Below are positions 1 through 26,362 of a stretch of DNA of 35,285 nt, piece by piece. The notes below the pieces were generated by a model. It saw only the letters and a program-made list of their open reading frames with translations. It did not search any database and was not told where the DNA came from. The DNA is from Candidatus Methanofastidiosia archaeon. GTDB lineage: Archaea > Methanobacteriota_B > Thermococci > Methanofastidiosales > SZ-28-30. The position numbers were made by a program, and so were the translations under genes. The number at the start of each line of letters is the position of its first letter. The stretch's first letter is position 1. The stretch lies in NCBI GenBank assembly GCA_046760205.1, contig JBHIDS010000002.1, positions 1-35,285 of the forward strand. Reading direction: 5' to 3'.

Positions 1-354
1 AATGACAATAATCCATGCTTTTTTTTTGATAAAGCTTTCTCTCTTTTTATACTTTCTAAATTCTTTTTCATTCATCCTTTTTATCGATCCTATCTTCAAG
101 TAGTAATTGAAACTTATGAGTATCAAAGCTATGATCAAAATTCCTATGAGATAATTTTTTGGAAAAAATTCTATGAATTCTTCTGGTATTAAAATAAAAG
201 ATAAGATCAAGGGTATTCCCAATCCAATCACCACAATTTCCAAACTGAAGTATCTCTTAAGTTTTTTCTTCAACATGAAAATAGTTGGAATTGAAAGTAA
301 CAATATCACCCATGCAAGAATTATCCTTGTAAGCCAAATCATTTCGTTCTCCAT
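1..354 (-). CDS. Integral membrane protein, N-terminal 118 codons only (gene runs off the window start)
   Basis: Absent from the ORF track because it has no stop inside the window. Hand translation of the minus strand from ATG 354..352 to base 1 is stop-free: MENEMIWLTRIILAWVILLLSIPTIFMLKKKLKRYFSLEIVVIGLGIPLILSFILIPEEFIEFFPKNYLIGILIIALILISFNYYLKIGSIKRMNEKEFRKYKKRESFIKKKAWIIVI. It has three hydrophobic helices, AAGGTG 5 nt upstream of the ATG, and lies on the same strand as the upstream genes. Preferred over the antisense track ORF 173..397. Confidence 0.45.
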   Translation of the reverse strand, partial: MENEMIWLTRIILAWVILLLSIPTIFMLKKKLKRYFSLEIVVIGLGIPLILSFILIPEEFIEFFPKNYLIGILIIALILISFNYYLKIGSIKRMNEKEFRKYKKRESFIKKKAWIIVI

Positions 355-548
355 TTTAGCACCTTATTTTTTTGAATTCGGTTTAGGATTATATTAACTT
401 TTTGGTTTAAAAATCCCACATATATCCCAAATCAATAGGTGAAACATGAAAAGAATCTTTATCATCGTTATTTTTCCTCCTCAACTTCGTTTTTTTCTCA
501 AATTGGGCTTTGTTTGAAAGTGATGTTGTAAAAATCAAAGATTTAGAG

Positions 549-1151
549 TTAGGATGAAAAGAGTCTCTTCTCTCTAACATCCTCAACGAGTTTAAGAATG
601 TCTCTCCTGAGATTTGGAACCAGATCAGAGATGGCATAGAATCCGATAACACCAATGAGAACTCCTCCAAGGTTGTAGGTGAGATCGTGGGCATACTTCC
701 AAGCCAATCCTTTCTCGAAAAAGAATATAACAAGAGTAAGCCTTAAAGTGTTTAGGAAGTATAAGAGGAGAGCGAGAATTATCAGAGATTTGAGTTTATC
801 TGAGAGTTTGGCTTCTGTTGCAAGAACCAATCCGAGAAAGAGTCCAAATATGGGAACTATGGTGCAGTTCACTGTTATCTCATAGGTTCCAATTGTGGAG
901 CTCTGAGTTTGGGCAGCTTTTCTTATGCTCTCTATGGCAGGATTTAAGATAATCCAAACCTTTTCATCCAAAACTGACACAGACTTGTTCTGACCAAGAA
1001 GGTTCAAAAGTCCTACCGCATGGATTGCAGTCTGTTTTCTGAACCAGAAGTAATTGGATATAAAATAGATGAAGAGAAAAACTCCAACTGTAATAGATAG
1101 AAAGACAAGACTTCTGTTGAGACCAAACTTCTTTTCTACTGCATCACTCAA
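549..1151 (-). CDS. Exosortase/archaeosortase-family-like polytopic membrane protein (stand-alone, Cys-containing paralog)
   Basis: Track ORF 549..1181. The likely start is TTG 1151 (AGAGGTGG, then 5 nt, then TTG), overlapping the upstream stop at 1144 by 8 nt. The protein is polytopic. In track numbering the motif order is LLNLLGQNKSVSV, then ITVNC(106)TIVPIF, then NTLR(147)LTL exactly 41 residues later, then AH(165)DL 18 residues after that. This Cys...Arg...His layout in consecutive TM helices matches what I know of the EpsH/ArtA family. The Cys codon TGC was verified at 866..864. Assignment by eye only. Confidence 0.6.
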   Translation of the reverse strand: MSDAVEKKFGLNRSLVFLSITVGVFLFIYFISNYFWFRKQTAIHAVGLLNLLGQNKSVSVLDEKVWIILNPAIESIRKAAQTQSSTIGTYEITVNCTIVPIFGLFLGLVLATEAKLSDKLKSLIILALLLYFLNTLRLTLVIFFFEKGLAWKYAHDLTYNLGGVLIGVIGFYAISDLVPNLRRDILKLVEDVREKRLFSS

Positions 1152-2607
1152 GTGAACCACCTCTGTGGAATCTCTCCTCAAGCTCCCTTTTAAAGTTTTT
1201 GAGAGAGAGATTCAACTCTTCCTCAAACTCTGGAATCTCTGGGGAGAGGAATTTTAAGAGGATGTAACTCTCTGCAATAAAAAATAAGTAATATGGAAGG
1301 TCGTGAGCCCAAAACATGGAAAATCCAAGGTTTGTTCCATAGAGAAGCAAAGACAGCCTTACGAGATTTGAGGAAAAAACGACGAAAAACACCTTGAAAA
1401 TAGCTTTGAGCCTCTTTGAAAAGGTTGTCTTAGATGCTATACACATCCCAAAGAAGAGAAAAAGAATTGGGAGGGCTGCAGAGTTTTTGGAGAGTAGGTA
1501 ATCATCGACAAGGGAAAAATCGCCTAAGAACTCCACCCTCACAGAGTATCCCAAAAAGTCTAAGAGCTTATAGAGGATGATGGTGGTGATTCTTCGAAAG
1601 ATGTAGTAATCTGAGATTTTATAGAGAAAGGTTGTAACTAGAAAGGTTTTTAGGAGAAAGTAAAGAATCTTGTTCTCATAGAGATGTCTCAAGATCGATT
1701 CAAGGGTATCCACCAAGACTACTTTCTCCTCTCTTTTCTTCATGTACTCCTCAAGTAGAACTGGAAGGAGAAGAAAGAAAAGAATCACCCAGAAAAAGGA
1801 GGGGATGAACTCCTTAATCTCAACTATGTCTTCCAACTCTGCAGGATCTGATGTATCCACAGTTATCAACTTTCTCTTTGCAAAGTCAGAGACCCAGATG
1901 AAGTTTTCCTGGAGAGCCACTCCAAGAGGGTATGCAGTTGGAGCCTGGAACCAATCCACCATCTCGCCATTTGTGGTATCAAAGCTATAGATTATTCCTC
2001 CAGAGAAGTCTGAAATTATTAAATACTCTCCATCCCAGTCCATTCCCTTAGGGTGCTCTCTCGGAGCCCTGAATCTCTTCTTCATCTCCCCAGTTTCTGT
2101 ATCTATTGTGTAGATTATGCCAGCAGGTTTTGCGTAGATGTCTGGAAATCCCTCTGTTCCATAGACATCTGAGACCCAGAGGTTCTCACCATCCCAGGCA
2201 AGCCCCCATGGAGTGGATAGAGGGGTTTTCAGCTCTAAGAGTACCTCACCCTTTAAAGAGAGCATGAAGAGCTTTCCTCCAATGAAGTCTGCATTCCAAA
2301 GATGCTCTCCATCCCAGGCAAGGCCTGCAGGCTTTACAGCAGGCGTTTTGAAGCTCTCAAGAACTTCAAACGTTTGGGGGTCCATTACCTTAATTAGTTT
2401 TTTCCTTGAGTCTGCAAGATATAGCTTTCCCTCAACAAACACCAATCCTTTATAGACGGTTGAGGGGTCTCTGAACTCTTGAACAGTTTCAAAGTAGTTT
2501 GAGACCTCTCTCTTTACAAGTTTTAATTTATAATCTCTGTAAAGGAGGATGGAAAAAGTGAAAAAAGCCAGAATGAACAAAATGATGAGCTTGTTTATCT
2601 TCTTCAA
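1144..2607 (-). CDS. Fusion protein: N-terminal TM anchor + five-bladed beta-propeller (glutamine cyclotransferase-like) + TM + C-terminal archaeosortase-like polytopic domain with Ser in the Cys position
   Basis: 487-aa ORF with a TTG start at 2607 preceded by GGTGAT plus 3 nt. Residues 5-22 are hydrophobic. Five repeats of the type G(L/M)(A/D)WDGE.LW..D...(I/L)....D cover residues ~55-250, and a DPQTFEVL segment is reminiscent of plant/bacterial glutaminyl cyclase. A TM helix spans residues 271-285. Residues ~300-455 align with the 549..1151 protein: LLDFLGYSVRVE, KNS(376)AALPIL, NLVR(417)LSL, AH(435)DL, with the identical 41 and 18 residue spacings. Confidence 0.7.
   Translation of the reverse strand: MKKINKLIILFILAFFTFSILLYRDYKLKLVKREVSNYFETVQEFRDPSTVYKGLVFVEGKLYLADSRKKLIKVMDPQTFEVLESFKTPAVKPAGLAWDGEHLWNADFIGGKLFMLSLKGEVLLELKTPLSTPWGLAWDGENLWVSDVYGTEGFPDIYAKPAGIIYTIDTETGEMKKRFRAPREHPKGMDWDGEYLIISDFSGGIIYSFDTTNGEMVDWFQAPTAYPLGVALQENFIWVSDFAKRKLITVDTSDPAELEDIVEIKEFIPSFFWVILFFLLLPVLLEEYMKKREEKVVLVDTLESILRHLYENKILYFLLKTFLVTTFLYKISDYYIFRRITTIILYKLLDFLGYSVRVEFLGDFSLVDDYLLSKNSAALPILFLFFGMCIASKTTFSKRLKAIFKVFFVVFSSNLVRLSLLLYGTNLGFSMFWAHDLPYYLFFIAESYILLKFLSPEIPEFEEELNLSLKNFKRELEERFHRGGSLE
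1874..2379. repeat. 506-bp tract 100% identical to 2970..3475 (direct repeat, offset 1096 bp), internal to the propeller-coding region
   Basis: Base-by-base comparison of the two stretches found no mismatch from ctctttgcaaagtcagagac... to ...cttcaaacgtttgggg. The encoded 168-aa segments and the antisense-frame ORFs are identical in the track. The flanks diverge immediately (t vs c at 1873/2969, g vs a at 2380/3476). Confidence 0.9.
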
Positions 2608-2616
2608 TCCATCACC

Positions 2617-2787
2617 CTAAAAAAGTAAGAGAACCAAAAGCCCCAGTAGAATCATCACTACTATTAAAATTATGAAGGGAAAAAAAATGGTCTCTAAAGT
2701 TGCTATGGTAATGGCTATGTAGTCCTTCCAGTCAGGTTTTATCTCGTCTTTTTTTTTCTCAAAATCATCAAATTCAAAGTCTCTCAT
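2617..2787 (-). CDS. Small membrane protein, 56 aa (sORF below the track cutoff); paralog of 11358..11495
   Basis: Hand translation: MRDFEFDDFEKKKDEIKPDWKDYIAITIATLETIFFPFIILIVVMILLGLLVLLLF, stop TAG at 2619..2617. ATG 2787 is preceded by GAGGTGA plus 3 nt and overlaps the last 14 nt of the upstream gene. The sORF exactly fills the gap before the next gene (start 2607). It has an acidic N-terminus plus one TM helix. A second copy with the same (W/F)KDY(I/V)A..IA.L(E/Q)T...PF..LI core sits in the same context elsewhere in the window. Confidence 0.55.
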   Translation of the reverse strand: MRDFEFDDFEKKKDEIKPDWKDYIAITIATLETIFFPFIILIVVMILLGLLVLLLF

Positions 2788-3703
2788 TTCTCACCTCACG
2801 TAGATTTCTTATTTTTTTGGGAAGCCTGCTCTTCATGTACTCCTCTACAAATATTGGTAAAAGAGCGAAGGCAAGAATCACCCAAAACCAACTTGGAACA
2901 AAGTTCTCCCTCTCACCAAATATGTCTCTGTACCTTGCAGGCTTTGAGAGATTGACTTTAAATATAACCCTCTTTGCAAAGTCAGAGACCCAGATGAAGT
3001 TTTCCTGGAGAGCCACTCCAAGAGGGTATGCAGTTGGAGCCTGGAACCAATCCACCATCTCGCCATTTGTGGTATCAAAGCTATAGATTATTCCTCCAGA
3101 GAAGTCTGAAATTATTAAATACTCTCCATCCCAGTCCATTCCCTTAGGGTGCTCTCTCGGAGCCCTGAATCTCTTCTTCATCTCCCCAGTTTCTGTATCT
3201 ATTGTGTAGATTATGCCAGCAGGTTTTGCGTAGATGTCTGGAAATCCCTCTGTTCCATAGACATCTGAGACCCAGAGGTTCTCACCATCCCAGGCAAGCC
3301 CCCATGGAGTGGATAGAGGGGTTTTCAGCTCTAAGAGTACCTCACCCTTTAAAGAGAGCATGAAGAGCTTTCCTCCAATGAAGTCTGCATTCCAAAGATG
3401 CTCTCCATCCCAGGCAAGGCCTGCAGGCTTTACAGCAGGCGTTTTGAAGCTCTCAAGAACTTCAAACGTTTGGGGAGAAATCTTGTATATGAGCTTTGTG
3501 TCAGAGTTTGCAAGCCAAAGATTTTCTCCATCAAAGCAAATCCCTTGCGTGATGTTTGAGGGGCTTTCAAACTTGTTTTCTGTAACGAAGTATCTTGAAA
3601 TAATAGTTTCTCTCCTTTTACTATCGTACACATCATACAAAAAAACAGTGAGAACAAAGATTCCAAAGATGAGCAACAAAATTCTCTTGTTTACCTTTCT
3701 CAA
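2774..3703 (-). CDS. Membrane-anchored five-bladed beta-propeller protein (glutamine cyclotransferase-like), paralog of the N-terminal half of 1144..2607
   Basis: Track ORF 2774..3793. I place the start at TTG 3703, for three reasons: GGTGAT plus 3 nt plus TTG is the same arrangement as the paralog start; it gives (M)RKVNKRILLLIFGIF, which aligns with MKKINKLIILFILAFF; and it avoids an 86-nt overlap with the upstream ATPase gene (stop 3708). Layout is N-terminal TM, propeller repeats, then a C-terminal TM (WFWVILAFALLPIFV) followed by a basic tail. Confidence 0.8.
   Translation of the reverse strand: MRKVNKRILLLIFGIFVLTVFLYDVYDSKRRETIISRYFVTENKFESPSNITQGICFDGENLWLANSDTKLIYKISPQTFEVLESFKTPAVKPAGLAWDGEHLWNADFIGGKLFMLSLKGEVLLELKTPLSTPWGLAWDGENLWVSDVYGTEGFPDIYAKPAGIIYTIDTETGEMKKRFRAPREHPKGMDWDGEYLIISDFSGGIIYSFDTTNGEMVDWFQAPTAYPLGVALQENFIWVSDFAKRVIFKVNLSKPARYRDIFGERENFVPSWFWVILAFALLPIFVEEYMKSRLPKKIRNLREVRNERL
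2970..3475. repeat. Second copy of the 506-bp identical tract (partner 1874..2379)
   Basis: See 1874..2379. Confidence 0.9.
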
Positions 3704-3707
3704 ATAA

Positions 3708-4676
3708 TCACCTTGGAAAGTAGCAAGCGTAGAAGTGCTCATCTCCATTGTCTTTGAACTCAGGTTCTTCCTTTGAACAGATTTCCTTGGCATAATGGCA
3801 TCTTGGATGAAATCTACAGCCTGAAGGTGGGTTTATAGGATTTGGAACATCTCCCCTCAAGATGATTCTCCTCTTCTTGATTTTAGGGTTTGGGATTGGA
3901 ATTGCAGAAACCAGAGCCTCTGTGTAAGGATGCTTTGGAGCCTCGAAGAGGGTATCAACATCTGCAAGCTCCACCAGCTTTCCAACATACATTACAGCCA
4001 CTCTGTCTGAGATGTGCTTTATCATAGAGAGGTCATGGGAAATGAAGAGATAGGTGAGCTTGAATTCTTTCTGAAGGTCATTCATCAAATTTAGAATCTG
4101 AGAGCGTACAGAGACATCCAGTGCTGATGTAGGCTCATCTGCAATTACCAACTTTGGATTGAGTGCAAGAGCTCTTGCAATTCCTATTCTCTGTCTCTGT
4201 CCCCCAGAGAACTCGTGTGGGTATCTGTATATGTGAAAAGGTGCAAGCCCCACCTTGTCCATTAACTCTTGAATTTTTTGAAACTTTTCCTCTTTATCTG
4301 CAACCTTGTGAATGTCGAAAGGCTCTCCTATGATATCATAAACCGTCATTCTCGGATTTAGAGAGGAGTAAGGATCCTGGAAGATGTACTGGATGTTCTC
4401 TCGAAGCTCGTTGAGCTCTCTCTTCTTGAGGTCGAGAATATTTTTTCCACCGTAGTAAATCTCTCCTGAGGTAGGTTCTGTGAGCCTAAGCATGGTTCTT
4501 GCAACAGTGGTCTTTCCACACCCACTCTCCCCCACCAATCCCAAGGTCTCTCCCTCTTTTATCCCAAAGCTCACGCCATCCACTGCCCTTACGTGCCCAA
4601 CAGTCTTCTTGAATATTATTCCTGCCTCTACTGGAAAGTATTTCTTCAAGTTCCTGACTTCTACGAGAAAGCTCAT
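3708..4676 (-). CDS. oppF: Oligopeptide/dipeptide ABC transporter ATP-binding protein (OppF/DppF type)
   Basis: Walker [10 protein letters not shown], signature FSGGQRQR, Walker [14 protein letters not shown]-loop ISHDL, and an Opp-type C-terminal extension [11 protein letters not shown]. The start is moved to ATG 4676 ([14 protein letters not shown]). This forms an ATGA overlap with the upstream stop and aligns with the paralog start at 17522. Confidence 0.93.
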
Positions 4677-5647
4677 TCCAACAACTCCGCATGATGACAT
4701 GCTGAGAGATGGCTATCTCCCATGCTTCTCAAAACTGGAATCTCTTTTTCACAAATCTCTGTTGCATAATCACACCGAGGGTGAAATCTGCACCCAGAAG
4801 GAGGAAATATTAGGTTTGGAACATTTCCTCTTATGACTCTCAACCTTGCTCTCTCCTGGTCCAATCTTGGAATTGATTCCAAGAGAGCTTTGGTATAAGG
4901 ATTTTTCTGGTTGAGGAATATGCTCTCAACATCTCCATACTCTGCTATTCTTCCAGCATACATCACGGCCACGTCATCGCAGGTTTCTGCTATCAACCCA
5001 AGATCATGGGTGATGTATAGAATTGCAGTGTTGAACTCCTTTTTAATTTCATTCATTAACTCTAAAACCTGAGCCTGGATTGTGACATCCAAGGCTGTGG
5101 TAGGCTCATCTGCAATGAGTAAATTAGGGTTGCATGAAAGTGCCAAGGCAGTCATCACTCTCTGCCTCATTCCCCCAGAGAACTGGTGGGGATAGTCCTT
5201 TGATCTGGACTCTGCCTGTGGAATTCCCATGAGCTCCATCATCTCTACAGCTTTCTTGAGAGCATCTCTCTTACTCAAGTTTTGGTGCAAGATTATGGCT
5301 TCTGCAATCTGGTCCCCAACCGTAAAGACAGGATTGAGGGATGTCATGGGGTCTTGAAATATCATAGAGATCTTGTTTCCTCTTATTTCCCTCATCTCTT
5401 TTTCTGTCATTTCCAAAAGGTTCTCTCCTTTAAAGGAAATCTCTCCCTCAACTATTAAACCTGGAGGATTTGGAACCAGCCTCAAGATCGACAGGGCAGT
5501 GACAGACTTCCCTGAACCTGATTCTCCTACTAGGCCGAGAGTCTCTCCTTCTTTGATATTCAAATCTATTCCGTCTATGGCTTTTACAACCCCATCCTCT
5601 GTGTAAAAGTAGGTCTTAAGTCCTCGAATCTCTATCAAATTTACCAA
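4673..5647 (-). CDS. oppD: Oligopeptide/dipeptide ABC transporter ATP-binding protein (OppD/DppD type)
   Basis: Walker A GESGSGKS, signature FSGGMRQR, Walker [18 protein letters not shown], and C-terminal [14 protein letters not shown] start at 5647 preceded by GGTGGT plus 3 nt. Confidence 0.93.
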
Positions 5648-5657
5648 TGAACCACCA

Positions 5658-6551
5658 TTACTGTTTCAGTCTTGGATCTAAAGCATCCCGCAAGCCATCT
5701 CCAAAGAAGTTGAAACCAAGAACTGTGAAGAAGATTGCAAGTCCTGGGAAAGTGGCAGCCCACCATGCATATCTGAGAGCATCCCTTCCACGGGTGAGCA
5801 TCTGTCCCCAGGAGGGTTGCGTTGGATCACCAAAGCCAAGAAAAGAGATTCCAGCCTCTGTTAGTATGGCTCCAGCTATTCCAAAGGTTGCCACAACGAG
5901 AATAGAATTCATGGCATTGGGGAGGAGGTGCCTGAAGATTATTCTCAGATCATTTGCCCCAAGAGCTCTTGCAGCCTCTGCATAGTCTGACTCTTTTAGA
6001 GAGAGAATCTGGCTTCTCACTATTCTGCAGTAACCTGTCCATGAAAAGATTCCTATCACAAAGGCGATCATCCATATCCCACCTTGGGGATAGATCTGCA
6101 AAGCAAGGAGAATCACAAAGAGGAAGGGCAAGCTCAAGAATATATCAACGAATCTTTGGATTATGTCATCCACCTTTCCTCCAGAGTAGGCAGAGATGCA
6201 GCCCAAGAAAGTACCAGTTGTGCTTGCTATCAAAACTGCCACAATGCCCACAACCATGGAAATCCTTGCACCCCATATCAATCTCGATAGAACGTCTCTT
6301 CCAAGCTCGTCCGTGCCCAACAAGTGCTTGGAGCTTGGAGGGTCGTAGCGCTCAAATAGAACTATCTCTTTGGGATTGTAGGGAGAAAGCTGAGGTGCAA
6401 ATATGGCTGTGAAAACCACCACCAAAACTATGGCTGAACCGAGTATTGCCATCCTATTTCTCTTTAATCTTCTCAGGACAGTCATCATCTGTCCCATTCT
6501 TCTTCTTTTAACAACGATCTCAGTTTCATCCTTGGTAACATCTATAGCCAT
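5658..6551 (-). CDS. oppC: Opp/Dpp ABC transporter permease (OppC/DppC type)
   Basis: Six-TM BPD-type permease with the typical N-terminal LGTDELGRDVLSRLIWGARIS motif and an EAA-like loop SDYAEAARALGA. GGTGAT plus 3 nt lies before ATG 6551. Confidence 0.92.
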   Translation of the reverse strand: MAIDVTKDETEIVVKRRRMGQMMTVLRRLKRNRMAILGSAIVLVVVFTAIFAPQLSPYNPKEIVLFERYDPPSSKHLLGTDELGRDVLSRLIWGARISMVVGIVAVLIASTTGTFLGCISAYSGGKVDDIIQRFVDIFLSLPFLFVILLALQIYPQGGIWMIAFVIGIFSWTGYCRIVRSQILSLKESDYAEAARALGANDLRIIFRHLLPNAMNSILVVATFGIAGAILTEAGISFLGFGDPTQPSWGQMLTRGRDALRYAWWAATFPGLAIFFTVLGFNFFGDGLRDALDPRLKQ

Positions 6552-6563
6552 TCTATCACCCTT

Positions 6564-7547
6564 TCAGTACTTCACCCTCGGATCCAAAACAGTGTATGAA
6601 ATGTCGACTATGAAGTTGGCAACGACGATGAGAACTGCAAACATCATCAGAATCCCCATGCAAACTGGATAGTCTCTAAGCCCAAGAGCAGAGACATAGA
6701 ACTTTCCCATTCCAGGCCATGAGAAAACAGTCTCTGTTATTGGTGCTCCTCCAATCAAAAGAGCAATGTTTAAGCCAACTACAGTTACCACAGGCAGGAG
6801 ACCATTTCTCAAAGCGTGCTTATATATCACAACTCGCTCTTTCAGTCCTTTGGAGCGTGCAGTCATTATGTAGTCCTGTCTTAAAACCTCAAGCATGTTG
6901 GATCTCACAAGCCGAGTCATGAAGCCCACAAAGGTGACAGCCAGTGCAATAACTGGCAGAACGAGATGCTTTATGTAATCTATGTAGTAAGCTGTGTCTC
7001 TTGGAATGTCTTTACCCAAAAAAGCCACTCCATGAGCTCCCTGAGAGGGAAACCAGCCGAGATGCAGAGAAAAAAGAAATATCGCCATAAGCGCAAACCA
7101 GAATATGGGCATAGAAACTCCCATCAGGGCTCCAGTCATGGCTATGTTATCGAGTTTGGAGTATTGCTTAACTGCAGATAAAACACCAATTGGGATTGCA
7201 ATTATGAGGGAAATAGCGTAAGCCACAGCTTGCATTATCATGGTGTTCCAGAACCTTAACTTTATTTCCTTGGTGACAGGCTCTCCACTTATGTAGGAGT
7301 TACCAAAATCTAAGTGTAAAACATTGTTTAGCCAATAACCATACTGAATGTACCATGGTTTGTCGAGTCCAAGATTGTGCCTCATTCTCTCTACTTCAGA
7401 AGGTGGGAGATTTGGGTTGAGAGAAAATCTCTGGGTTATTGGATCGCCTGGAACAGCATACATTATTCCAAAAATAAGAATAGATATTCCAATTAGTATG
7501 GGAATCATCTGTATGACTCTTTTTATGGCATAATCTCTCACGCCCAT
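6564..7547 (-). CDS. oppB: Opp/Dpp ABC transporter permease (OppB/DppB type)
   Basis: Typical OppB N-terminus (YAIKRVIQMIPILIGISILIF, then PGDP), an EAA loop DYIMTARSKGLKERVVIYKHALRN and the C-terminal LDPRVKY. GGAGGT lies 6 nt before ATG 7547. Confidence 0.92.
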   Translation of the reverse strand: MGVRDYAIKRVIQMIPILIGISILIFGIMYAVPGDPITQRFSLNPNLPPSEVERMRHNLGLDKPWYIQYGYWLNNVLHLDFGNSYISGEPVTKEIKLRFWNTMIMQAVAYAISLIIAIPIGVLSAVKQYSKLDNIAMTGALMGVSMPIFWFALMAIFLFSLHLGWFPSQGAHGVAFLGKDIPRDTAYYIDYIKHLVLPVIALAVTFVGFMTRLVRSNMLEVLRQDYIMTARSKGLKERVVIYKHALRNGLLPVVTVVGLNIALLIGGAPITETVFSWPGMGKFYVSALGLRDYPVCMGILMMFAVLIVVANFIVDISYTVLDPRVKY

Positions 7548-7624
7548 TTTTAACCTCCATTGTTTTTCTTTAATTTACCTTGAATACCTTAAAAAAAATT
7601 TTAAAAATTAAAAAATAAAGAAAT
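7548..7624 (-). terminator. Putative intra-operon oligo-T terminator/attenuator after the binding-protein gene
   Basis: On the transcribed strand, immediately after the stop: atttctttATTTTTTAATTTTTAAAATTTTTTTTaagg, with T6, T5 and T8 runs. Archaeal termination signals are oligo-T tracts. This is the only sizeable gap in the operon. Confidence 0.3.
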
Positions 7625-9457
7625 TTAGTTGTCTTTTTTCTTTCTCAAAACCAAACCAAGTCCAAAGAGTACTGCGATTATGCTGAAGGCTGGTGCCTCT
7701 GCTTTCTCTGTTCTCACCCAGTAGCTGTACCCAGCTTTTGCCATGGTTTCCCTAGCCTTTACTGGGTCGTATGGATAAGGTTGTAGGTTGTCGTTGTAAG
7801 CCCAGGAAGGCACTGCAATTGGGTTTGCAATTGGAACTGAGAGACCTCCTAAAAGCTCATCCACTATTTGTTGTCTTGGTATCATGTAGGAGCAAGCCTG
7901 TCTTACGTACTTGTTGGCAAGGTAGGGATTTCTCACGTTGTAGTGCATGTGCTGGTATCCAAAGTTCTCTGCAGTAACAGCGGTGATGTTGGGCTTTGCG
8001 TTGAGATCGTCAAAGAACTCGTTGAGACTGTACTGGGCATCGAGGATGTCAACCTCGTTGTTCTCGAGAGCCACTTGGGCAACTGAAGCCTCAGTTATTG
8101 GCTTGATGATCAAGTACTTCGCTCCAGCTTTCCCAGGAGTTGTGCCCCAGGTCGCAATTCCTCCCCAGTAGTCCTCGTTTCTCTCAAGCTTGACGAACTC
8201 GTCCTTCACCCATTCAACGAACTTGAAGGGTCCTGTTCCGATCACTTTTGTTGGGTCTCCAGTGCTGTGAGGTGCCTCTATCCAAGCTTGGGCTGAACCC
8301 TCACCTGTAAGTGGTAACTCTCCATAAACACTCTTTGGCAGAACTGCAACACTGATCTGTCCAAGCCAGTTGGCGTGGGGTTGCTTGACGTAAACTCTCA
8401 CAGTGTACTTGCCTACCTTCTCGTACTTCTCGATCATATCTGGTAACTGTCCAGTCTGGGGCAGCGCCAGATCATCTGAGAGCAGTGCATCGTAGGAGAA
8501 TATCAGATCGTCCGCAGTCATCTCAACTCCATTGTGGAACTTGATACCTTCTCTAAGCTTTATGTCAAAGTACTCCGGAAATTCAAGGGGTGTAGCAACA
8601 TCCTCAATCTCGAACTCCTTTGTAGGTCCTGGAGTTGCTGATTCGGCAAGAAACGGCACCAAGCTAAGATTCTCATCCCTTGTAAACAGACCCTCAAAGA
8701 CCTGTCCAATGGCTTGAATGGTGTAAAGAGAACCATACAGATAGACGTTGGTAGTCTCTATGTCGTCGTTTTGAGCATATACGATGGTATCTCCATCTGC
8801 AGGCACCCAGGGTCTTGCATCCCCAACGATGGACCAGTGGTCACCGTTAAAGCCGCCCAGGTTAGAATCATAGGCATAAACCTGCTTTAGAGAGTAAATC
8901 ACAGAGTAGGGTTGTTCATCATAGATTATCTCCTGCCACTCATCCAAAAACTGCTTTCTCTTTGCTTGGTCAAGCTCTAATCTTGCCTTCACCAAAAGCT
9001 CGTCAGCCTTGGGGTTAATCCACCAGGTGATGGAATATCCTTCTGGAATGAGGTACTTCGAGGAGAAAATGTACTCTGGGTCTGGATCAATACCCACACC
9101 CCAGCCAAAGAATCCGATGTCAAATCCACCCTCATCGTAGGTCTTTCCCTCCACGTTGTCAAACTCCCTGCCAATCAAATCAGAGAAGTCCATCATAACA
9201 AGTTCGGTCTCTATTCCAATCTTCTTGAGCTCTTCAGCCATGATTGCTGCATACTGCTCTCTCACCTTGTTACCCAACGGGGCTATCAAAGTGATCTTGA
9301 AGAATTTGGGATATGTAGAGTAGTCCTCTGTGAAAGGCACTTGGGTAAATTCTGGAGGTTCTTGTGCAACAACAGATACATTTCTTCCAAAGAAAGCCAG
9401 AGTCAACATTGAAACAAATAGCAAACTCACCAGTACTCCAAATTTCCTAGATTTCAT
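7625..9457 (-). CDS. oppA: ABC transporter substrate-binding protein, family 5 (Opp/Dpp type), with a C-terminal PGF/PEF-CTERM-like membrane anchor
   Basis: 610 aa with an N-terminal signal/anchor (FGVLVSLLFVSMLTLAFF). It has SBP_bac_5-like sequence throughout (e.g. GTGPFKFVEWVKDEFVKLERNEDYWG). The C-terminus is EAPAFSIIAVLFGLGLVLRKKKDN, i.e. motif, TM helix, then basic cluster. GGAGGT lies 7 nt before ATG 9457. Confidence 0.9.
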   Translation of the reverse strand: MKSRKFGVLVSLLFVSMLTLAFFGRNVSVVAQEPPEFTQVPFTEDYSTYPKFFKITLIAPLGNKVREQYAAIMAEELKKIGIETELVMMDFSDLIGREFDNVEGKTYDEGGFDIGFFGWGVGIDPDPEYIFSSKYLIPEGYSITWWINPKADELLVKARLELDQAKRKQFLDEWQEIIYDEQPYSVIYSLKQVYAYDSNLGGFNGDHWSIVGDARPWVPADGDTIVYAQNDDIETTNVYLYGSLYTIQAIGQVFEGLFTRDENLSLVPFLAESATPGPTKEFEIEDVATPLEFPEYFDIKLREGIKFHNGVEMTADDLIFSYDALLSDDLALPQTGQLPDMIEKYEKVGKYTVRVYVKQPHANWLGQISVAVLPKSVYGELPLTGEGSAQAWIEAPHSTGDPTKVIGTGPFKFVEWVKDEFVKLERNEDYWGGIATWGTTPGKAGAKYLIIKPITEASVAQVALENNEVDILDAQYSLNEFFDDLNAKPNITAVTAENFGYQHMHYNVRNPYLANKYVRQACSYMIPRQQIVDELLGGLSVPIANPIAVPSWAYNDNLQPYPYDPVKARETMAKAGYSYWVRTEKAEAPAFSIIAVLFGLGLVLRKKKDN

Positions 9458-9632: not shown

Positions 9633-10016
9633 ATGGAACTCGGTCCATTGGAAAACAAGATAATGGAGATAGTTTGGAGAAAGAGAAAGGTCGATGCGAG
9701 AGAGATTTACAAGGAACTCAACAGGGAAAAAAAATTAGCCTATACCACCATAAACACCACTCTGACAAGACTTTGCGAGAAGAATCTTTTAAAGAGGAAA
9801 GCTATCAAGGGGAGAGGAGGTATGAGGTACATCTACACCCCTACTAAAACTAAGAGAAAGTTTCAGAACTTTGTCATAAGAAAGACCTTGGACGATCTTC
9901 TCTCAAGATTTGGAGAGGTTACCATTCAATACTTCTCTGAGAATCTAAATTTGAGTGAGGAGGAGATCGAGATGCTCAAGAGGAGAATGGAGGAATTGAA
10001 TGAGAGAGGAGATTGA
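9633..10016 (+). CDS. BlaI/MecI/CopY-family winged-helix transcriptional repressor
   Basis: LENKIMEIVWRKRKVDAREIYKELNREKKLAYTTINTTLTRLCEKNLLKRK is the typical Penicillinase_R-type N-terminal wHTH. Size is 127 aa. It overlaps, and is followed by, an M56-type peptidase gene. A TTTATAAA box lies ~25 nt upstream of the ATG, suggesting a leaderless or short-leader mRNA. Confidence 0.8.
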   Translation: MELGPLENKIMEIVWRKRKVDAREIYKELNREKKLAYTTINTTLTRLCEKNLLKRKAIKGRGGMRYIYTPTKTKRKFQNFVIRKTLDDLLSRFGEVTIQYFSENLNLSEEEIEMLKRRMEELNERGD

Positions 10017-11361
10017 GAATTTAGCCTTTGCCTTGGCTCTCGTTTTGCTCATCTATGTTTTAAACGAGATTGTAATCAAGCTATTTCGAATTTCAAATCC
10101 ATCCACCAAGTTTAAAATCTACATGATCTCTCTTCTAACCTGCTTTTCCCTCTTCATTTTAGTTCCTCTCAAGGTCAGAGAGCTCAACATCATCCTTGAA
10201 AATTCTGAGAGTGTTCTCTTTGACAGCATCGACTCTATCTACACTATTAAGGCAAGCTCAGTTTTTTTTGCCACCCGTTACTCTGACTTTGCGATACTCT
10301 CTGCGGTTTCTGCAATCCTCACTTTAAGCTTTTTCTCAATAGTTCTTCTCGCCTCCAAAAGACTAATTAAGTATAAGATCGGTGCAAGAGAACTTGAAAA
10401 CCCAAAGGTCTTAAAGCTTATAGATGAATTGGAAAGGGAGATTGGGGTTGAGGTTTCAGAAGTTGTGAGCTTTGAGGGAGAACCTAACGCCTTTGTTTTT
10501 TCCTATCCTCCAATTCTTGCCTTGAGTAGGGAGCTCTTAGAAAAGTTGGACAAAGGAGAGCTCAAGTTGGTTTTGAGACACGAGCTCTATCACATCAGAA
10601 ACAGAGACACCTTACTTAAACCTCTTTTACTCTCAATCTCCATCTTCTTCTTCTACAACCCTTTATCCTACTTTCTCTACAAGAGACTTATGGAGTACAG
10701 AGAGTACGTTGCAGACAAATCTGCAATATTCTCTGAGATGGAAAAGAGAAAGTTCCTCTCTCTACTCTTGAAGTTTCACACTCTGGAGAGAGAACACGGA
10801 GTTCTCTCCTTTAAAGGCTCAAAGAATTTGAGAAACAGAATAAATTCCCTCCTTTCAACTCAGAAAGAAAGAAAAGCTCCAATTCTCATAAGTATCCTCC
10901 TCACCCTTTCTCTAATCTTTTCTGGAAACTATTACCTAGGAGCCAACTTTGAGTACTCGGAATCCTATGTGAGAAACCTCAAAGATCCACAGAGCCTGAA
11001 GGGTGTAGAGAGAGTCTTTTTGAACTTCTCAGATCAAGAGATAATAGAGATGTATGAAAAAAAGATTAGAAATAGGGAGAAAATAGAGTTCTACCTCAAC
11101 AAAACAGATGCCGAACTCATTAAAATTCTTTTAAGAGAGAAAAACAAATCGAAGGAGAGTGTGAAAATAAACTTGAACTCTCTAAATCTCAACAAGCGAA
11201 GATTCAGAGCGCTTCTTAACATAGAGGAGAATTTGAGAAAGGAATTCAAGCTTGTGATAGACAACACTGGAGAAGTTCTCACTGTATATATCACCATAAA
11301 CGACCCTCAAGAACCTTTGAAATTTGAAATCCCAAAAAATCCCAAGTACCAGATCATCTAG
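10000..11361 (+). CDS. BlaR1/MecR1-like M56-family membrane metalloprotease/signal transducer (no penicillin-binding sensor domain evident)
   Basis: Several N-terminal TM helices, an HEXXH zinc motif in LVLRHELYHIRNRD, and further TM helices. The ~150-aa Lys/Glu-rich C-terminal domain has no SxxK motif. GGAGGA lies 5 nt before ATG 10000, and the gene overlaps the blaI-like gene by 17 nt. Confidence 0.7.
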   Translation: MREEIENLAFALALVLLIYVLNEIVIKLFRISNPSTKFKIYMISLLTCFSLFILVPLKVRELNIILENSESVLFDSIDSIYTIKASSVFFATRYSDFAILSAVSAILTLSFFSIVLLASKRLIKYKIGARELENPKVLKLIDELEREIGVEVSEVVSFEGEPNAFVFSYPPILALSRELLEKLDKGELKLVLRHELYHIRNRDTLLKPLLLSISIFFFYNPLSYFLYKRLMEYREYVADKSAIFSEMEKRKFLSLLLKFHTLEREHGVLSFKGSKNLRNRINSLLSTQKERKAPILISILLTLSLIFSGNYYLGANFEYSESYVRNLKDPQSLKGVERVFLNFSDQEIIEMYEKKIRNREKIEFYLNKTDAELIKILLREKNKSKESVKINLNSLNLNKRRFRALLNIEENLRKEFKLVIDNTGEVLTVYITINDPQEPLKFEIPKNPKYQII

Positions 11362-14537: not shown

Positions 14538-15005
14538 TCAAAACAACCTTCTTTGGTGAAATGAGAAAAAACCTCTGTAAGACTTTTTTTGAAGCTCGGA
14601 GTAGAGTTTTTTGGTTTGCTCCCAGGAAAGCCTCTCATACTCTGAAGGCATTCCCTCTTTAAGTCTCAACTTTGTCCTAAAGAACTCTTCCTTGCTCTCT
14701 GAAGCTATGGTGTAAACTTCCTTTCCGAGATTCACCCCATACTCCATCTCCTTCAAAACTCCATACGTATACTTTTCAAAGATGACGAGCCCACAAACTA
14801 TCCTTGATGATGAAATGAGATTCTCAAAGAAACCTTTTCCCTTGAAACCGTAGTCTGCTGGATTTATTATCTTTGAATCCCGAAACTTTGATCTTAGAAA
14901 TTCAAGGCACTCCCTCTCTGTTTTGGTGTGAAAGGTGAGTGTGGGATGTGAGAAGTAGAGTTTTTCACCCAAATCCTCTCTTCTCCCAAAAAGCCTTCTA
15001 AGCAA
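14538..15005 (-). CDS. Hypothetical protein; tentative nucleoside 2-deoxyribosyltransferase-like (DUF4406-like) fold
   Basis: Track ORF 14538..15014 (GTG start). I prefer TTG 15005 (AGAGGTGGA, 4 nt, TTG), which overlaps the upstream stop by 8 nt. KLYFSHP...INPADYG...RIVCGLVIFEKYTYGVLKEMEYGVNLGKEVYTI loosely resembles the IYxxGP...NP...CDxxxxL..S.G...E...A..lGk.V pattern. The function call is weak. Confidence 0.55.
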   Translation of the reverse strand: MLRRLFGRREDLGEKLYFSHPTLTFHTKTERECLEFLRSKFRDSKIINPADYGFKGKGFFENLISSSRIVCGLVIFEKYTYGVLKEMEYGVNLGKEVYTIASESKEEFFRTKLRLKEGMPSEYERLSWEQTKKLYSELQKKSYRGFFSFHQRRLF

Positions 15006-16557
15006 GTCTTCCACCTCTTAAAGTATATATAAACCTCAAAAAGACTCCACAAAAAGCACCTAAGGGGCTTGTCTTTAAGCCAAGAGAGATTCCAGAGATT
15101 CCAAATCTTAGAATCATAGCTATGATGAAACTCTCACTCTCTGAAACCCATAAAAAGCATCCCACCAAAACTCCTGTAAAAAGGGAAGCTATTAATCCCA
15201 AACCAAACCCCACGAAGAGACCAATGAAACCGCCCTCACTTTTCCAGGCATTCCTTCCTGCAAAGCCTCCTGAGAAAAGACCTACCAAAAGAAAAAAAGA
15301 ACTCTCAAAAGGCGCCTCTCCCAAATATCTTCCCAAAATAGCACCAAATATTCCTCCAAGAAGAAAGGAGAAGAACTCTCCACCCTTTAAGAAATCAAGA
15401 CTCAATTTCTTTCCTCTGTAAGTAAAGATGAAAATCTCTAAAATTCCAACACCAAAAACCAAAGCCCATGCATTTCTCGAACCTATAAGAAAAACCGAAT
15501 TGCTGAAAAAAAGGTTTACAGAATCTTTTGAGAAGGAAAATATGTACTCTCCACCAAGAGAACTCTCCAAGAATCTCCTCTCTTCAATCCCACTATATCT
15601 CCAAACTGGAATTTTCCTTTTGCCATAGTACAAACTAATACCCTCTCCATCAGAAACTATGAGATAAGAACCATATGGTGGAAAATAGATGAGAGCTTCA
15701 TCTTTAACGTCATGTGAAATCAGTAATTCTCCGTTATTGGAGAAGATTTTTATCTCCTCTCCCACAACCATCACCTCTCTTCCCTTGGCTCTTAAACTCA
15801 GACTTTTTATCTCCTCTTCAATATTGTGACTCCAGAGAGTCTTGCCCTCATGTAATAGATGAATCTCTCCATTTGATGTGGCAACTGCCATATAATCTCC
15901 AGACCTTGAAATTGAGGCATCGATTATCTTGAATAGAAACTTCCTCTCCCAAATCAACTCTCCCTTCGAGGAGGAAAAAAATGAGAGCTTTTTATCTGAA
16001 AATATTATAACATACTTTCCATTTTGAGACAATTTTGCCTTTGCACCTTTTAGGGAGATTGACCACATGGGACTTTCCCTGTTCTTGTCGAAGAGTGAAA
16101 CTTTCTCTTTAGAAGTAACCAGAATTCTCACCAAAGCTGTGGTTCCTCCACCAGAGAATATGTCAGATACTCTTGAATCCTCTCTGAGATTTATTTTTAA
16201 AAGAGGCATGGGTTTTCCTGCATTTCCTTGAAAGATACAGTAGAGATTTCCCTTCTCGTCAGTGGCAGCAAGGTATCTTCCATCTAGAGATATTTTGAGA
16301 GAGGTTATCCTTGCATCTGCTTGGTACTCCCAAAAAGGTTTGGAATTGAAGGAAAGGTGGTAAAAGATCTTTCCACTTGAAGTCCCAAAAACCAAAGAGC
16401 CTCCATCCCCAGAGACATGAGTAGACGTTATCTCATCTTCTGTGTTAAGTATCCAGTTGGGTTTCTTTTCCCTGACAGTACCTGTGAAAACATAGATGGA
16501 TAGAATGATAAAAATGAGGGCAAATGAAATAGCCTTAAAGTTTATCGTCATCACCAT
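14998..16557 (-). CDS. Membrane-anchored PQQ/WD40-like beta-propeller protein with a C-terminal glycine-zipper polytopic domain
   Basis: Track ORF 14998..16650. The start is moved to ATG 16557 (MVMTINFKAISFALIFIILSIYVF), overlapping the oppF2 stop by 7 nt. About 330 aa carry repeats of the type S.DG.Y.A..T..G.I.L......LW. Then come 5-6 Gly-rich TM helices (GGIFGAILGRYLG, GLFSGGFAGRNAW, GLFVGFGLGLIASLFTGVLVG). Confidence 0.75.
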   Translation of the reverse strand: MVMTINFKAISFALIFIILSIYVFTGTVREKKPNWILNTEDEITSTHVSGDGGSLVFGTSSGKIFYHLSFNSKPFWEYQADARITSLKISLDGRYLAATDEKGNLYCIFQGNAGKPMPLLKINLREDSRVSDIFSGGGTTALVRILVTSKEKVSLFDKNRESPMWSISLKGAKAKLSQNGKYVIIFSDKKLSFFSSSKGELIWERKFLFKIIDASISRSGDYMAVATSNGEIHLLHEGKTLWSHNIEEEIKSLSLRAKGREVMVVGEEIKIFSNNGELLISHDVKDEALIYFPPYGSYLIVSDGEGISLYYGKRKIPVWRYSGIEERRFLESSLGGEYIFSFSKDSVNLFFSNSVFLIGSRNAWALVFGVGILEIFIFTYRGKKLSLDFLKGGEFFSFLLGGIFGAILGRYLGEAPFESSFFLLVGLFSGGFAGRNAWKSEGGFIGLFVGFGLGLIASLFTGVLVGCFLWVSESESFIIAMILRFGISGISLGLKTSPLGAFCGVFLRFIYTLRGGRLA

Positions 16558-17522
16558 AAACCTCGAAAGTGACAAGCCACAAAGTGTCTGTTTACCTCCT
16601 CTAAAAGCTTGGGTTCTTCTTTGGTGCAAACTTTCTGTGCAAATGGACATCTTGGATGAAACCTACAGCCTGGAGGCGGATTTGAGGGAGATGGAACATC
16701 TCCTTTTAGAATTATCTCTTCCTGCTGAAAGTCTGGATCAGGATTCGGTATGGCAGAGAGAAGAGCTTTGGTGTAGGGATGGAGATGGTTTGAGAAGAGC
16801 TCATCCACACCACACATCTCCACTATCTTTCCAACGTACATCACTGCAACGATATCTGAGATGTGCTTTATAATCGAGAGATTGTGAGAGATGAAGAGAT
16901 AGGTTAGATTCATGTTTCTCTGCAAATCTTGGAGCATATTTAGAACCTGAGCCTGCACTGAAACATCTAAAGCTGAAGTGGGCTCGTCCAAAACGATGAA
17001 CTTGGGATTTAGAGCCAAAGCCCTTGCCACACATATCCTCTGTCTTTGACCTCCAGAGAACTCATGAGGGTACCTATTGAGGTGCTCTGGTTTCAACCCC
17101 ACCGTATCCAAAAGCTCTAAAACCCTTTCCTTTAACTCTTTCCCGTTGTAAAGATTCTGGATAACGAAAGGCTCCCCCACGATGTTCTTGATGGTCATTC
17201 TTGGATTTAAAGATGAGAAGGGATCCTGAAAAACCATCTGCATGTTTCTCCTCATAATCCTCAGCGTTTCGTTATCGAGATTTCCTAAGTCTTTGCCCTC
17301 AAAATAGATCTTCCCTTCTGTGGGTTCCACAAGCCTTAGGATTGTTCTCCCAACAGTGGTCTTTCCACACCCACTCTCTCCCACCATGCCAAGGGTCTCT
17401 CCCTTCTCGATATAGAAAGAAATGTCGTCCACAGCATGCACATACCCAATGACCCTTGAGAAGACTCCCCCTTTTATTGGAAAGTACTTCTTCAGCCTCT
17501 CAACTTCAATAAGATGAGTCAC
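16551..17522 (-). CDS. oppF: Oligopeptide/dipeptide ABC transporter ATP-binding protein (OppF/DppF type), second system
   Basis: [34 protein letters not shown] and C-terminal [11 protein letters not shown]. Track start is 17558. I prefer GTG 17522 for three reasons: GGAGGTGG lies 5 nt upstream, it forms a GTGA overlap with the upstream stop, and the N-terminus (M)[13 protein letters not shown] aligns with [14 protein letters not shown] of the paralog. Confidence 0.92.
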   Translation of the reverse strand: MTHLIEVERLKKYFPIKGGVFSRVIGYVHAVDDISFYIEKGETLGMVGESGCGKTTVGRTILRLVEPTEGKIYFEGKDLGNLDNETLRIMRRNMQMVFQDPFSSLNPRMTIKNIVGEPFVIQNLYNGKELKERVLELLDTVGLKPEHLNRYPHEFSGGQRQRICVARALALNPKFIVLDEPTSALDVSVQAQVLNMLQDLQRNMNLTYLFISHNLSIIKHISDIVAVMYVGKIVEMCGVDELFSNHLHPYTKALLSAIPNPDPDFQQEEIILKGDVPSPSNPPPGCRFHPRCPFAQKVCTKEEPKLLEEVNRHFVACHFRGLW

Positions 17523-18508: not shown

Positions 18509-18512
18509 GAAA

Positions 18513-20430: not shown

Positions 20431-20499
20431 TTGGAAACCTCATCCACACCAAGCAAAAATTCAATATAAGCTTTTTGGTAAAATAAAAAAGAAAAAAGT
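20431..20499 (-). terminator. Putative intra-operon oligo-T terminator/attenuator after the second binding-protein gene
   Basis: The transcribed strand right after the TAA stop reads acTTTTTTcTTTTTTaTTTTacc. The position is equivalent to 7548..7624 in the paralogous operon. Confidence 0.3.
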
Positions 20500-22680: not shown

Positions 22681-22689
22681 GCCTTAGGT

Positions 22690-22764
22690 AAGAGTAACAC
22701 CTTTTTATAAGTTTTGCTACCAAAACATTTATAAAGAGTAACACGAATTTTAAAAGGGTGTTAC
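22690..22764. promoter_or_regulatory. nikR-cbiM divergent control region: candidate NikR operators GTAACAC-N13-GTGTTAC (perfect) and GTAACAC-N13-TTGCTAC (degenerate) overlapping two TATA boxes
   Basis: GTAACAC lies at 22738..22744 and GTGTTAC at 22758..22764, with a 13-nt spacer. This site sits between the TTTATAAA box (22728..22735) and the cbiM SD/ATG (22776). A second GTAACAC at 22694..22700 is paired at N13 with TTGCTAC (22714..22720). That pair spans CTTTTTATAA (22701..22710), the likely nikR TATA read on the minus strand. The 11-mer AAGAGTAACAC is repeated at 22690 and 22734. Confidence 0.5.
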
Positions 22765-22775
22765 AAGGTGAGAAA

Positions 22776-23677: not shown

Positions 23678-23681
23678 TTGA

Positions 23682-26358: not shown

Positions 26359-26362
26359 TGAA

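Follow-up and report, generated by a model that had tools for sequence, protein, structure and literature searches.

A candidate archaeosortase system with a propeller–sortase fusion in the Opp operon of a Theionarchaea-related archaeon

We analyzed a 35,285-nucleotide (nt) stretch of DNA from a Candidatus Methanofastidiosia archaeon (GenBank assembly GCA_046760205.1, contig JBHIDS010000002.1, positions 1 to 35,285; hereafter the window). On its minus strand, an operon for an Opp/Dpp-type ATP-binding cassette (ABC) importer (Opp1) is extended at its end by four genes. Following OppF, these encode a 309-amino acid (aa) protein in which a five-bladed propeller lies between two transmembrane (TM) helices, a 56-aa membrane protein (small open reading frame, sORF), a 487-aa fusion of a second such TM-propeller-TM unit to a polytopic domain, and a 200-aa polytopic protein paralogous to that domain. 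The polytopic units belong to the exosortase/archaeosortase family, and in related genomes a fusion of the same architecture follows OppF. We suggest, with a probability of roughly 0.45, that the locus is a dedicated archaeosortase system built into the peptide-importer operon of this Theionarchaea-related archaeon.

The four open reading frames (ORFs) are tightly packed, and all of them are present at the expected coordinates. The preliminary description of this DNA, made from the sequence alone, was thus correct in its anatomy of four minus-strand genes with junctions ranging from a 14-nt overlap to a 9-nt gap. The propeller gene begins 4 nt after the stop of OppF and overlaps the sORF by 14 nt, the sORF and fusion are separated by 9 nt, and the fusion overlaps the sortase gene by 8 nt. 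Three of the four ORFs start with TTG and one with ATG, and a Shine-Dalgarno-like motif (GGTGA/GAGGTG) is present a few bases before each of the four starts. The sortase gene has an alternative TTG start at position 1181 that opens a 210-aa reading (549..1181). T-runs are present downstream (3′) of position 549, and beyond them a separate gene, for a membrane protein, extends past the edge of the window. In positions 1–4000, we found no sigma-70-type promoters above shuffle expectation and no intrinsic terminators, using models not designed for archaea.

The two polytopic units are clearly paralogous. The 200-aa protein aligns to residues 296–487 of the fusion (BLASTP E = 7e-15, 25% identity over 194 residues), and both units have the same order of motifs with exact spacings of 41 and 18 residues. 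Because the units are only 25–28% identical, the duplication is old. Their assignment to the exosortase/archaeosortase family, proposed in the preliminary description, is supported: with the NCBIfam signature TIGR04178, the 200-aa protein reaches 32.6–32.7 bits, above the cut-off of 23, and fused orthologues from other genomes score 26.6 and 24.7 bits, also above the cut-off. Among named subfamilies, heimdallarchaeosortase (NF045528) is the best match of the 200-aa protein, yet at 46.2 bits it fails the cut-off of 130; the match to ArtA (TIGR04125) is 32 bits and fails the cut-off of 75. Membership in the heimdallarchaeosortase, ArtA, ArtH, and ArtE subfamilies was rejected, as all scores are under their cut-offs. 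The PGF-CTERM model has no match in the window proteins that were scanned.

A word-index homologue search with the 210-aa reading retrieves only itself. When 1.84 billion representatives were searched exhaustively (HMMER) with a profile of the two paralogues, only 39 proteins matched, 35 of which were aligned with the two window units. Of these 37 aligned sequences, 36 match TIGR04178; true heimdallarchaeosortases (6e-80), ArtA (1e-39), and ArtH (2e-38) are among them. The columns of Arg137 and His155 are invariant and those of Cys96 and Asn134 nearly so, with Asn in 36 of 37 sequences that share just ∼20–30% identity. In most members, the Cys–Arg spacing is 41 and the Arg–His spacing is 18. 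Residues Cys173 and Arg214 are critical by experiment in Haloferax volcanii ArtA (PMC9263693), and Cys/Arg/His is the inferred triad of the family (Haft preprint, 10.1101/2023.06.07.544157). One ArtA-like match, P0049, has triad positions that are literally C173 and R214; the spacing of 41 that the preliminary description gave for ArtA is, in the alignment, shared by the window units.

The AlphaFold2 (AF2) models of the 200-aa protein (predicted local distance difference test, pLDDT, 91.2; predicted template modeling score 0.83) and of the fusion are confident. In both, and by hydropathy, three successive helices bear Cys/Ser, Asn/Arg, and His, respectively, at the same end. Charge distribution and the position of the propeller suggest that these ends are at the outer face of the membrane, on the propeller side. 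The Protein Data Bank (PDB) has no relative of the sortase domain by sequence, and by fold the best Foldseek match has an E of 0.3 and template modeling scores do not exceed 0.32. Since the PDB is without any member of the family, this fold comparison is uninformative.

The two window copies differ at the predicted nucleophile. The free protein has Cys, Arg, and His (C96, R137, H155) at the conserved family columns, as the preliminary description had expected. The fused copy keeps Asn414, Arg417, and His435, and Ser376 takes the place of Cys. The fused domain is the only aligned sequence without the Cys; the 36 others all have it, and it is kept in 12 of 12 fused orthologues from other genomes. 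The free 200-aa paralogue retains the full set of Cys96, Asn134, Arg137, and His155. Judged from these residues, the free paralogue is probably the active enzyme in the window, and the fusion, with its Ser, probably either serves as a scaffold or has become an altered enzyme. The free sortase also has an insertion of ∼20 residues, WIILNPAIESIRKAAQTQSS (residues 64–84, nt about 900–960), in an extracytoplasmic hairpin loop before the Cys. The insertion is absent from all close relatives, has a pLDDT of 67–72, and may be a specificity element. Other free small sortases (P0036, P0038, and P0039) have no link to Opp or propeller genes in their contexts, which are short contigs.

The propeller has a glutaminyl-cyclase-like fold. 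The two window propeller proteins are 74% identical (E = 3e-158) and each consists of TM1, five four-stranded blades, and TM2. The AF2 model of the fusion (mean pLDDT 82.7) has 21 strands in five blades, and 10-residue blocks across residues 51–150 and 161–240 average 89–96. The best Foldseek matches in the PDB are glutaminyl cyclases (2iwa, 3mbr, 2faw, 3nol, and 3nok), which align over the whole domain with E of 9e-15 to 6e-11, target-normalized template modeling scores of 0.70–0.76, and a root mean square deviation of ∼3 Å. The likeness to the plant/bacterial glutamine cyclotransferase seen in the preliminary description therefore stands for the fold, but the window propellers score only 11.1 and 14.1 bits with Pfam Glu_cyclase_2 (PF05096), under its gathering cut-off of 22.3. 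An orthologue of the fusion, P0061, just passes (27.8 bits).

Conservation of cyclase function is a different matter. We take the catalytic residues of cyclases to be Gln24 and Glu69 in the papaya enzyme and the Glu of FTEGL in the Xanthomonas enzyme. Positions of the cyclase motifs FT(Q/E)GL and FGEG correspond to VYKGL and KPAGL in the window (K and A) and to TTNGL and FEAAG in P0061 (N and A). Actual cyclase activity is doubtful because the aligned motifs do not appear to be kept. True glutaminyl-cyclase function was rejected for the window propellers, with scores under the cut-off and active-site motifs apparently not kept, and the role in N-terminal or peptide modification that the preliminary description had proposed is not supported. 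At the sequence level, the blades (GLAWDGE.LW..D) are like generic DUF6923, NHL, and Vgb-lyase repeats.

The nearest nonarchaeal relatives of the propeller are of two kinds. In many clusters, a propeller with 30–40% identity precedes a transglutaminase-like Cys-protease core (PF01841) in proteins of ∼540 aa (e.g., P0003, P0006, and P0008). Others are cargo of the type IX secretion system (T9SS); among them, P0013, P0021, and P0026 have a type A sorting domain that scores over its cut-off. This bacterial propeller family is widespread and apparently uncharacterized. Its PF01841 fusions fit a role as a recognition module at a thiol enzyme, and the propeller of the window is probably an extracytoplasmic docking or binding domain rather than a glutaminyl cyclase. 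An archaeal propeller surface protein, P0004, is in an unrelated gene context.

The association with the importer is conserved. P0061 (486 aa), a match of the exhaustive search, has the same propeller-sortase architecture as the window fusion, and a search based on it recovered 12 clusters of 485–495-aa fusions together with ∼300-aa propeller-only paralogues. Fusion copies at NCBI are from metagenome-assembled genomes (MAGs) named "Theionarchaea archaeon" and are labeled "hypothetical protein"; those at JGI are labeled "exosortase/archaeosortase family protein". The order OppA, OppB, OppC, OppD, OppF, fusion, sORF is the same in at least four independent loci (L003, GCA_019008925.1; L004, GCA_018992855.1; L005, GCA_964595645.1; L011, a JGI metagenome), three of which are from Theionarchaea or related MAGs. 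In all four, the start of the fusion abuts or overlaps the stop of OppF. Behind the fusion in L003, L005, and L011 come ORFs of 49–80 aa that are homologous to the sORF of the window and share 10 invariant columns, and the window Opp1 is orthologous to that of Theionarchaea (46% identity for OppA and 64% each for OppD/OppF and BlaI). The functional tie to the importer that the preliminary description had proposed gains support from this synteny and from the contact between fusion start and OppF stop. None of the four outcomes named there as refuting the hypothesis was obtained.

The propeller-Opp link is also recurrent, as propeller relatives adjoin Opp-type genes in two additional loci (L001 and L006). 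The L001 protein, P0012 (2825–3979), is a TM-propeller-TM protein with a C-terminal membrane part that aligns only to the first sortase helix and is without the part that bears Cys/Arg/His. Its gene is convergent to an Opp operon, the OppA of which likewise bears a TM tail at the C-terminus, and P0012 may be related to the fusion in degenerate form. Among the sequences found, only this lineage has the fusion to a sortase. The four-gene expansion of the window (propeller-only gene, sORF, Ser-bearing fusion, and free Cys-bearing sortase) was found on no other contig. An exact-sequence look-up of the window fusion returned no record, and one scan of genome contigs with the fusion found bacterial propeller homologues only and no closer archaeal relative.

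By its domain matches, Opp1 has the composition of an Opp/Dpp-type importer, with a family-5 binding protein, two permeases, and two oligo_HPY ATPases. OppA1 matches SBP_bac_5 with 234.8 bits, the operon has matches to NCBIfam Opp4A, GsiB, and NikA, and the Opp ORFs and their orthologues have Pfam BPD_transp_1, OppC_N, ABC_tran, and oligo_HPY domains. A divergent pair of genes for a BlaI-like repressor and an M56-type membrane protease is upstream of the operon in the window, L003, L004, and L011; L005 has other genes there. The pair may transduce a signal and so regulate the Opp/sortase operon (table 1).

Table 1. Coordinates of features at the propeller–sortase locus (window positions unless a locus is named)
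Feature	Position	Strand	Remarks
Stand-alone small archaeosortase-family gene, 200 aa	549..1151	-	TTG start at 1151
His155 of stand-alone sortase	687-689	-	
Arg137 of stand-alone sortase	741-743	-	
Cys96 codon of stand-alone sortase	864..866	-	TGC; predicted nucleophile
Fusion, 487 aa	1144..2607	-	TM1, five-bladed propeller, TM2, archaeosortase-like domain
Archaeosortase-like domain of fusion	1162..1671	-	Residues 313-482; Ser376, Asn414, Arg417, His435
His435 of fusion	1303-1305	-	
Arg417 of fusion	1357-1359	-	
Ser376 codon of fusion	1480..1482	-	TCT at near-invariant Cys position; one base from TGT
TM2 of fusion	1729..1800	-	Residues 270-293; P-x-W just upstream (I268-P269-S270-F271-F272-W273)
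Propeller domain of fusion	1837..2508	-	Residues 34-257; five blades, glutaminyl-cyclase-like fold (AF2, Foldseek)
506-nt block	1874..2379		Perfect (100%) identity with 2970-3475; covers blades 2-5 of each propeller gene
Membrane sORF, 56 aa	2617..2787	-	Charged N-terminus, then single C-terminal TM
TM-propeller-TM protein, 309 aa	2774..3703	-	TTG start at 3703; ends P-S-W, TM, charged tail
Second copy of 506-nt block	2970..3475		
Opp/Dpp-type ABC importer operon	3708..9457	-	The four genes are appended to its end
OppF	3708-4700	-	
OppD	4673-5647	-	
OppC	5658-6551	-	
OppB	6564-7547	-	
OppA (OppA1)	7625-9457	-	
OppA1 C-terminal tail AEAPAFSIIAVLFGLGLVLRKKKDN	7628..7702	-	Short motif, TM, basic cluster; candidate sorting signal
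BlaI-like repressor	9633-10016	+	Divergently upstream of OppA1
BlaR1/M56-M48-like membrane protease	10000-11361	+	Divergently upstream of OppA1
BlaI/M56 pair in relatives	L003 919-2635; L004 842-2558; L011 1-777		

Two kinds of co-encoded proteins are candidate substrates. OppA1 is the only protein with a soluble domain in the window that has both a signal peptide and a C-terminal TM/basic tail. All of its orthologues have a signal peptide and a C-terminal TM with KKKD or KRE after it. The other candidate is the propeller itself, with its P-x-W, TM2, and charged segment. TM2 together with P-x-W is the best-conserved segment of the fused orthologues (mean pairwise identity of 0.71), is also the highest in comparisons of the window with fused orthologues (0.41), and is kept (0.52) in propeller-only paralogues whose genes lie elsewhere with no sortase. 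The segment has a fixed order of P-x-W, a TM with a conserved Pro, D/E-E, and then Lys/Arg, with P269, W271, P282, and E287 near-invariant. When a sorting enzyme acts inside the membrane, the TM of its signal is expected to have conserved residues, and "dedicated" systems, in which an enzyme and its single target are encoded nearby, are an established pattern (10.1101/2023.06.07.544157).

Other binding proteins have tails of different types. The OppA of a second Opp operon in Theionarchaea (L003 11984–13822; L011 10047–11879) ends in GG[TL]CLGTLF..., a TM, and KRRN, with an invariant Cys, which recalls Cys-containing signals of the CGP-CTERM type that are assigned to CPBP-type archaeomyxosortases. 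In OppA2 of the window (20500–22155), the N-terminus bears a lipobox (LSGC) and the C-terminus lacks a TM.

Under the proposed mechanism, the enzyme would be a small intramembrane cysteine peptidase or transpeptidase of the exosortase/archaeosortase family, with Cys, Arg, and His each at the outer end of one of three successive TM helices. Relatives encode the sortase as one polypeptide with a five-bladed propeller before it that would be surface-exposed and tethered to the membrane twice. In the window, this unit would have been duplicated and its roles divided between the Ser-bearing fusion and the free Cys-bearing paralogue, and gene conversion has probably kept part of an extra propeller-only copy identical to the fused propeller. 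If it works as ArtA does, the enzyme would cut a membrane-proximal tripartite signal at the outer face of the membrane and exchange the TM helix of a co-encoded surface protein for a lipid anchor. The first candidate for this protein would be the binding protein OppA1, with its signal peptide, C-terminal motif, TM, and KKK tail, and the second would be the propeller proteins with their P-x-W, TM2, and charged segment.

Several observations weigh against a dedicated system of this kind. Neither window sortase reaches the cut-off of any named subfamily. The profile searches suggested in the preliminary description were divided: TIGR04178 is passed by the 200-aa protein, but Glu_cyclase_2 is not passed and Pfam PF09721 has no match at E ≤ 1 for either window protein, although relatives P0036, P0077, P0079, and P0083 carry it. 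The fused domain scores 18.2 bits with TIGR04178, under the cut-off of 23, and is without the nucleophile Cys. With respect to substrates, curated CTERM models have just weak or generic matches to the candidate tails. The tail of OppA1 matches Heimdall-CTERM (NF045529) at 16.5 bits (cut-off of 24), and the 18.2-bit match of the Theionarchaea tail to LPXTG_anchor reflects just its TM/basic architecture. No motif before the TM is shared, as the window OppA1 has APAF and Theionarchaea have G[TA]STTT. C-terminal TM tails are common on binding proteins of this lineage, including an OppA2 that has no adjacent sortase. Finally, the best-conserved segment is the TM2 of the propeller, which points at least equally to the propeller as substrate or partner.

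That last point is central to an alternative that we consider unlikely, though not negligibly so: the propeller would be the sortase's own cargo, P-x-W/TM2/charged segment would be an internal tripartite signal, and OppA would not be a substrate. Cleavage by the fusion itself or by the free paralogue would yield a propeller lipid-anchored at its C-terminus and a sortase freed for unfused paralogues. The conservation of TM2, with or without a sortase in the same protein, is as expected of a sorting signal. ArtA offers a precedent: fusion of a substrate gene with the gene downstream of it left a PGF tripartite signal inside a protein, and ArtA processes that signal (PMC6098224; PMC9263693). Propeller homologues are typical sorted cargo, as in the T9SS proteins above, and other archaeal propeller members have C-terminal TM/basic tails. 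On the other hand, the residues after TM2 are acidic (D/E-E), and the unfused paralogues have a conserved cytoplasmic tail of 20–30 residues (..KWW.FWKE) that is unlike the short Arg/Lys-rich ends of known sorting signals and atypical of a signal to be discarded; together they suggest a permanent TM with a cytoplasmic function. TM1 is like an uncleaved anchor, the tail matches no known CTERM model, and cargo status by itself leaves the fixed position behind OppF unexplained. A related proposal, in our estimation improbable, is that the propeller bears a sorting signal of a new class (P-x-W, a TM that contains Pro, and an acidic/basic tail; internal in the fusion and C-terminal in the paralogues), and that the enzyme releases itself by its own cleavage, attaches the propeller to lipid next to the Opp permease, and goes on to mature OppA. 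If so, an ABC importer would encode its own surface-anchoring machinery, providing a route to how C-terminally anchored archaeal binding proteins are tethered.

Other readings dispense with sorting or with the arrangement itself. The propeller/TM proteins and sortase-like domains could be structural or regulatory partners of Opp, acting for example in OppA assembly or positioning or in peptide capture, with the fold co-opted without peptidase activity. Loss of the Cys from the window's fused copy, the presence of propeller-only genes next to Opp-type permease genes, and P0012, which keeps the propeller and TM2 beside an Opp operon with a truncated, nonsortase C-terminal membrane part, are in line with this. 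It is nevertheless quite unlikely, since Cys/Arg/His/Asn are kept among sequences of such low identity (Cys in every fused orthologue and the free paralogue, Arg and His without exception), which argues for retained catalysis. The position in a peptide-importer operon, the cyclase fold matches, and the passing score of P0061 would suit a module that cyclizes, trims, or ligates free extracellular peptides for Opp import. This we regard as very unlikely given the subthreshold window scores, the altered cyclase motifs, and the generic character of the blades; in addition, we know of no exosortase-family member that acts on free peptides. Least credible is that the four-gene arrangement is an assembly artefact or a decaying duplicate of one fusion and sORF, with no functional elaboration. 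It is true that a 506-nt perfect repeat is present inside 1.1 kb, that the arrangement is on this contig only, and that Ser376 is one base from Cys. Yet all four ORFs are intact, the junctions are compact, each ORF has its own Shine-Dalgarno-like motif, the sortase units are of old divergence, and the flanks of the block have about 35–50% protein identity, far beyond strain variation. The block is probably a recent gene-conversion tract that homogenized blades 2–5; intact ORFs and well-formed junctions favor conversion over misassembly, and an artefact as its source is highly improbable.

The kinds of components in this module are already known. What may be new is the fusion of propeller and archaeosortase, their fixed place as the sixth and seventh genes of the operon, and the split into Ser and Cys copies in the window. 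These are absent from the subfamily models of NCBIfam release 20, and a limited literature search found no paper on them, nor any that uses the terms "heimdallarchaeosortase" or "Heimdall-CTERM". In the same limited literature, a propeller as the N-terminal domain of a sorting enzyme and an ABC-importer context for such an enzyme were not found. The preliminary description's term "undescribed" is therefore apt with regard to models and papers, but fusions are present in public MAGs and the JGI label exists. With at least 12 clusters in Theionarchaea-type MAGs, the fusion family merits its own subfamily model.

To our knowledge, experiments on archaeosortases are almost only on ArtA in haloarchaea, where one enzyme handles many PGF-CTERM proteins. 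A minimal sortase core of ∼170 residues that is tied to a propeller and an importer shrinks the search for substrates to two or three co-encoded proteins. Such a small system makes substrate recognition testable, as well as whether cleavage and lipid attachment are a single transpeptidation step. It also suggests a possible route for maturation of C-terminally TM-tagged binding proteins of Euryarchaeota. The natural Cys-to-Ser fused copy beside a Cys-bearing free copy is a ready case of division of labor between scaffold and enzyme.

Elsewhere in the window, a second Opp operon (16551–22155) is directly followed by a gene for a 550-aa membrane-anchored propeller protein (14998–16650, minus strand) that overlaps OppF2 (16551–17558). 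In this protein, an N-terminal TM is followed by a PQQ/BamB-like propeller and then by a polytopic, Gly-rich C-terminus, and no sortase model matches it; both Opp operons of the window thus end in a gene that combines a propeller with a membrane domain. A NikR-like regulator gene and then CbiM/CbiQ/CbiO-type genes for an energy-coupling factor (ECF) metal transporter are at 22267–25120, and thioredoxin/glutaredoxin-like genes come after the ECF transporter genes at 25963–26995, a gene context of an ordinary kind. A 470-aa polytopic protein (32969–34381, minus strand) has a weak match (14.8 bits, E = 0.007) to TIGR04154, [quoted passage not shown]. It adjoins a 1128-aa PgaB-like polysaccharide deacetylase/glycosidase protein (29558–32944, minus strand), and the two are possibly surface-glycan genes.

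Among known systems, ArtA (TIGR04125; MEROPS C106; H. volcanii; PGF-CTERM substrates) shares the family signature TIGR04178 with the window sortase. Both are polytopic membrane enzymes with the ordered Cys...41...Arg...His pattern, and by analogy the window enzyme is predicted to act likewise on a motif/TM/basic tripartite signal with subsequent lipid anchoring. Unlike ArtA, which is ∼300 aa and has many S-layer and other surface substrates, the window sortase has a core of about 165–200 aa, is fused to or beside a propeller, is embedded in an ABC-importer operon, and has no PGF-CTERM targets among the window proteins scanned. Heimdallarchaeosortase, the best named subfamily for the 200-aa protein, is similar in size (model length of 199), and its partner signal Heimdall-CTERM is the sole CTERM model that the OppA1 tail matches. 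However, the synteny of the window is that of Theionarchaea (Methanobacteriota) rather than of Asgard archaea, and neither propeller fusion nor Opp linkage is in the name or description of the model, on which alone this comparison is based.

For the propeller, plant and bacterial glutaminyl cyclases (PF05096; 2iwa, 3mbr, 3nol, and 3nok) are five-bladed and of the same size. In contrast to them, the window propeller is held between two TM helices and has blades with the repeated GLAWDGE.LW motif typical of DUF6923/NHL-like repeats. Bacterial proteins that combine a DUF6923/Vgb_lyase-type propeller with PF01841 resemble the fusion in having an N-terminal propeller followed by a thiol peptidase-like domain, but their transglutaminase core is soluble and they have no TM2. 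With respect to organization, dedicated (one-to-one) exosortase/sorting systems offer a parallel, with enzyme and presumed target in one gene cluster. Sorting enzymes with variable N-terminal domains, such as the myxosortases MrtX, MrtC, and MrtP, offer another, in that a conserved catalytic core is combined with a lineage-specific N-terminal domain; the myxosortases are of the CPBP/Rce1 type and not the exosortase type.

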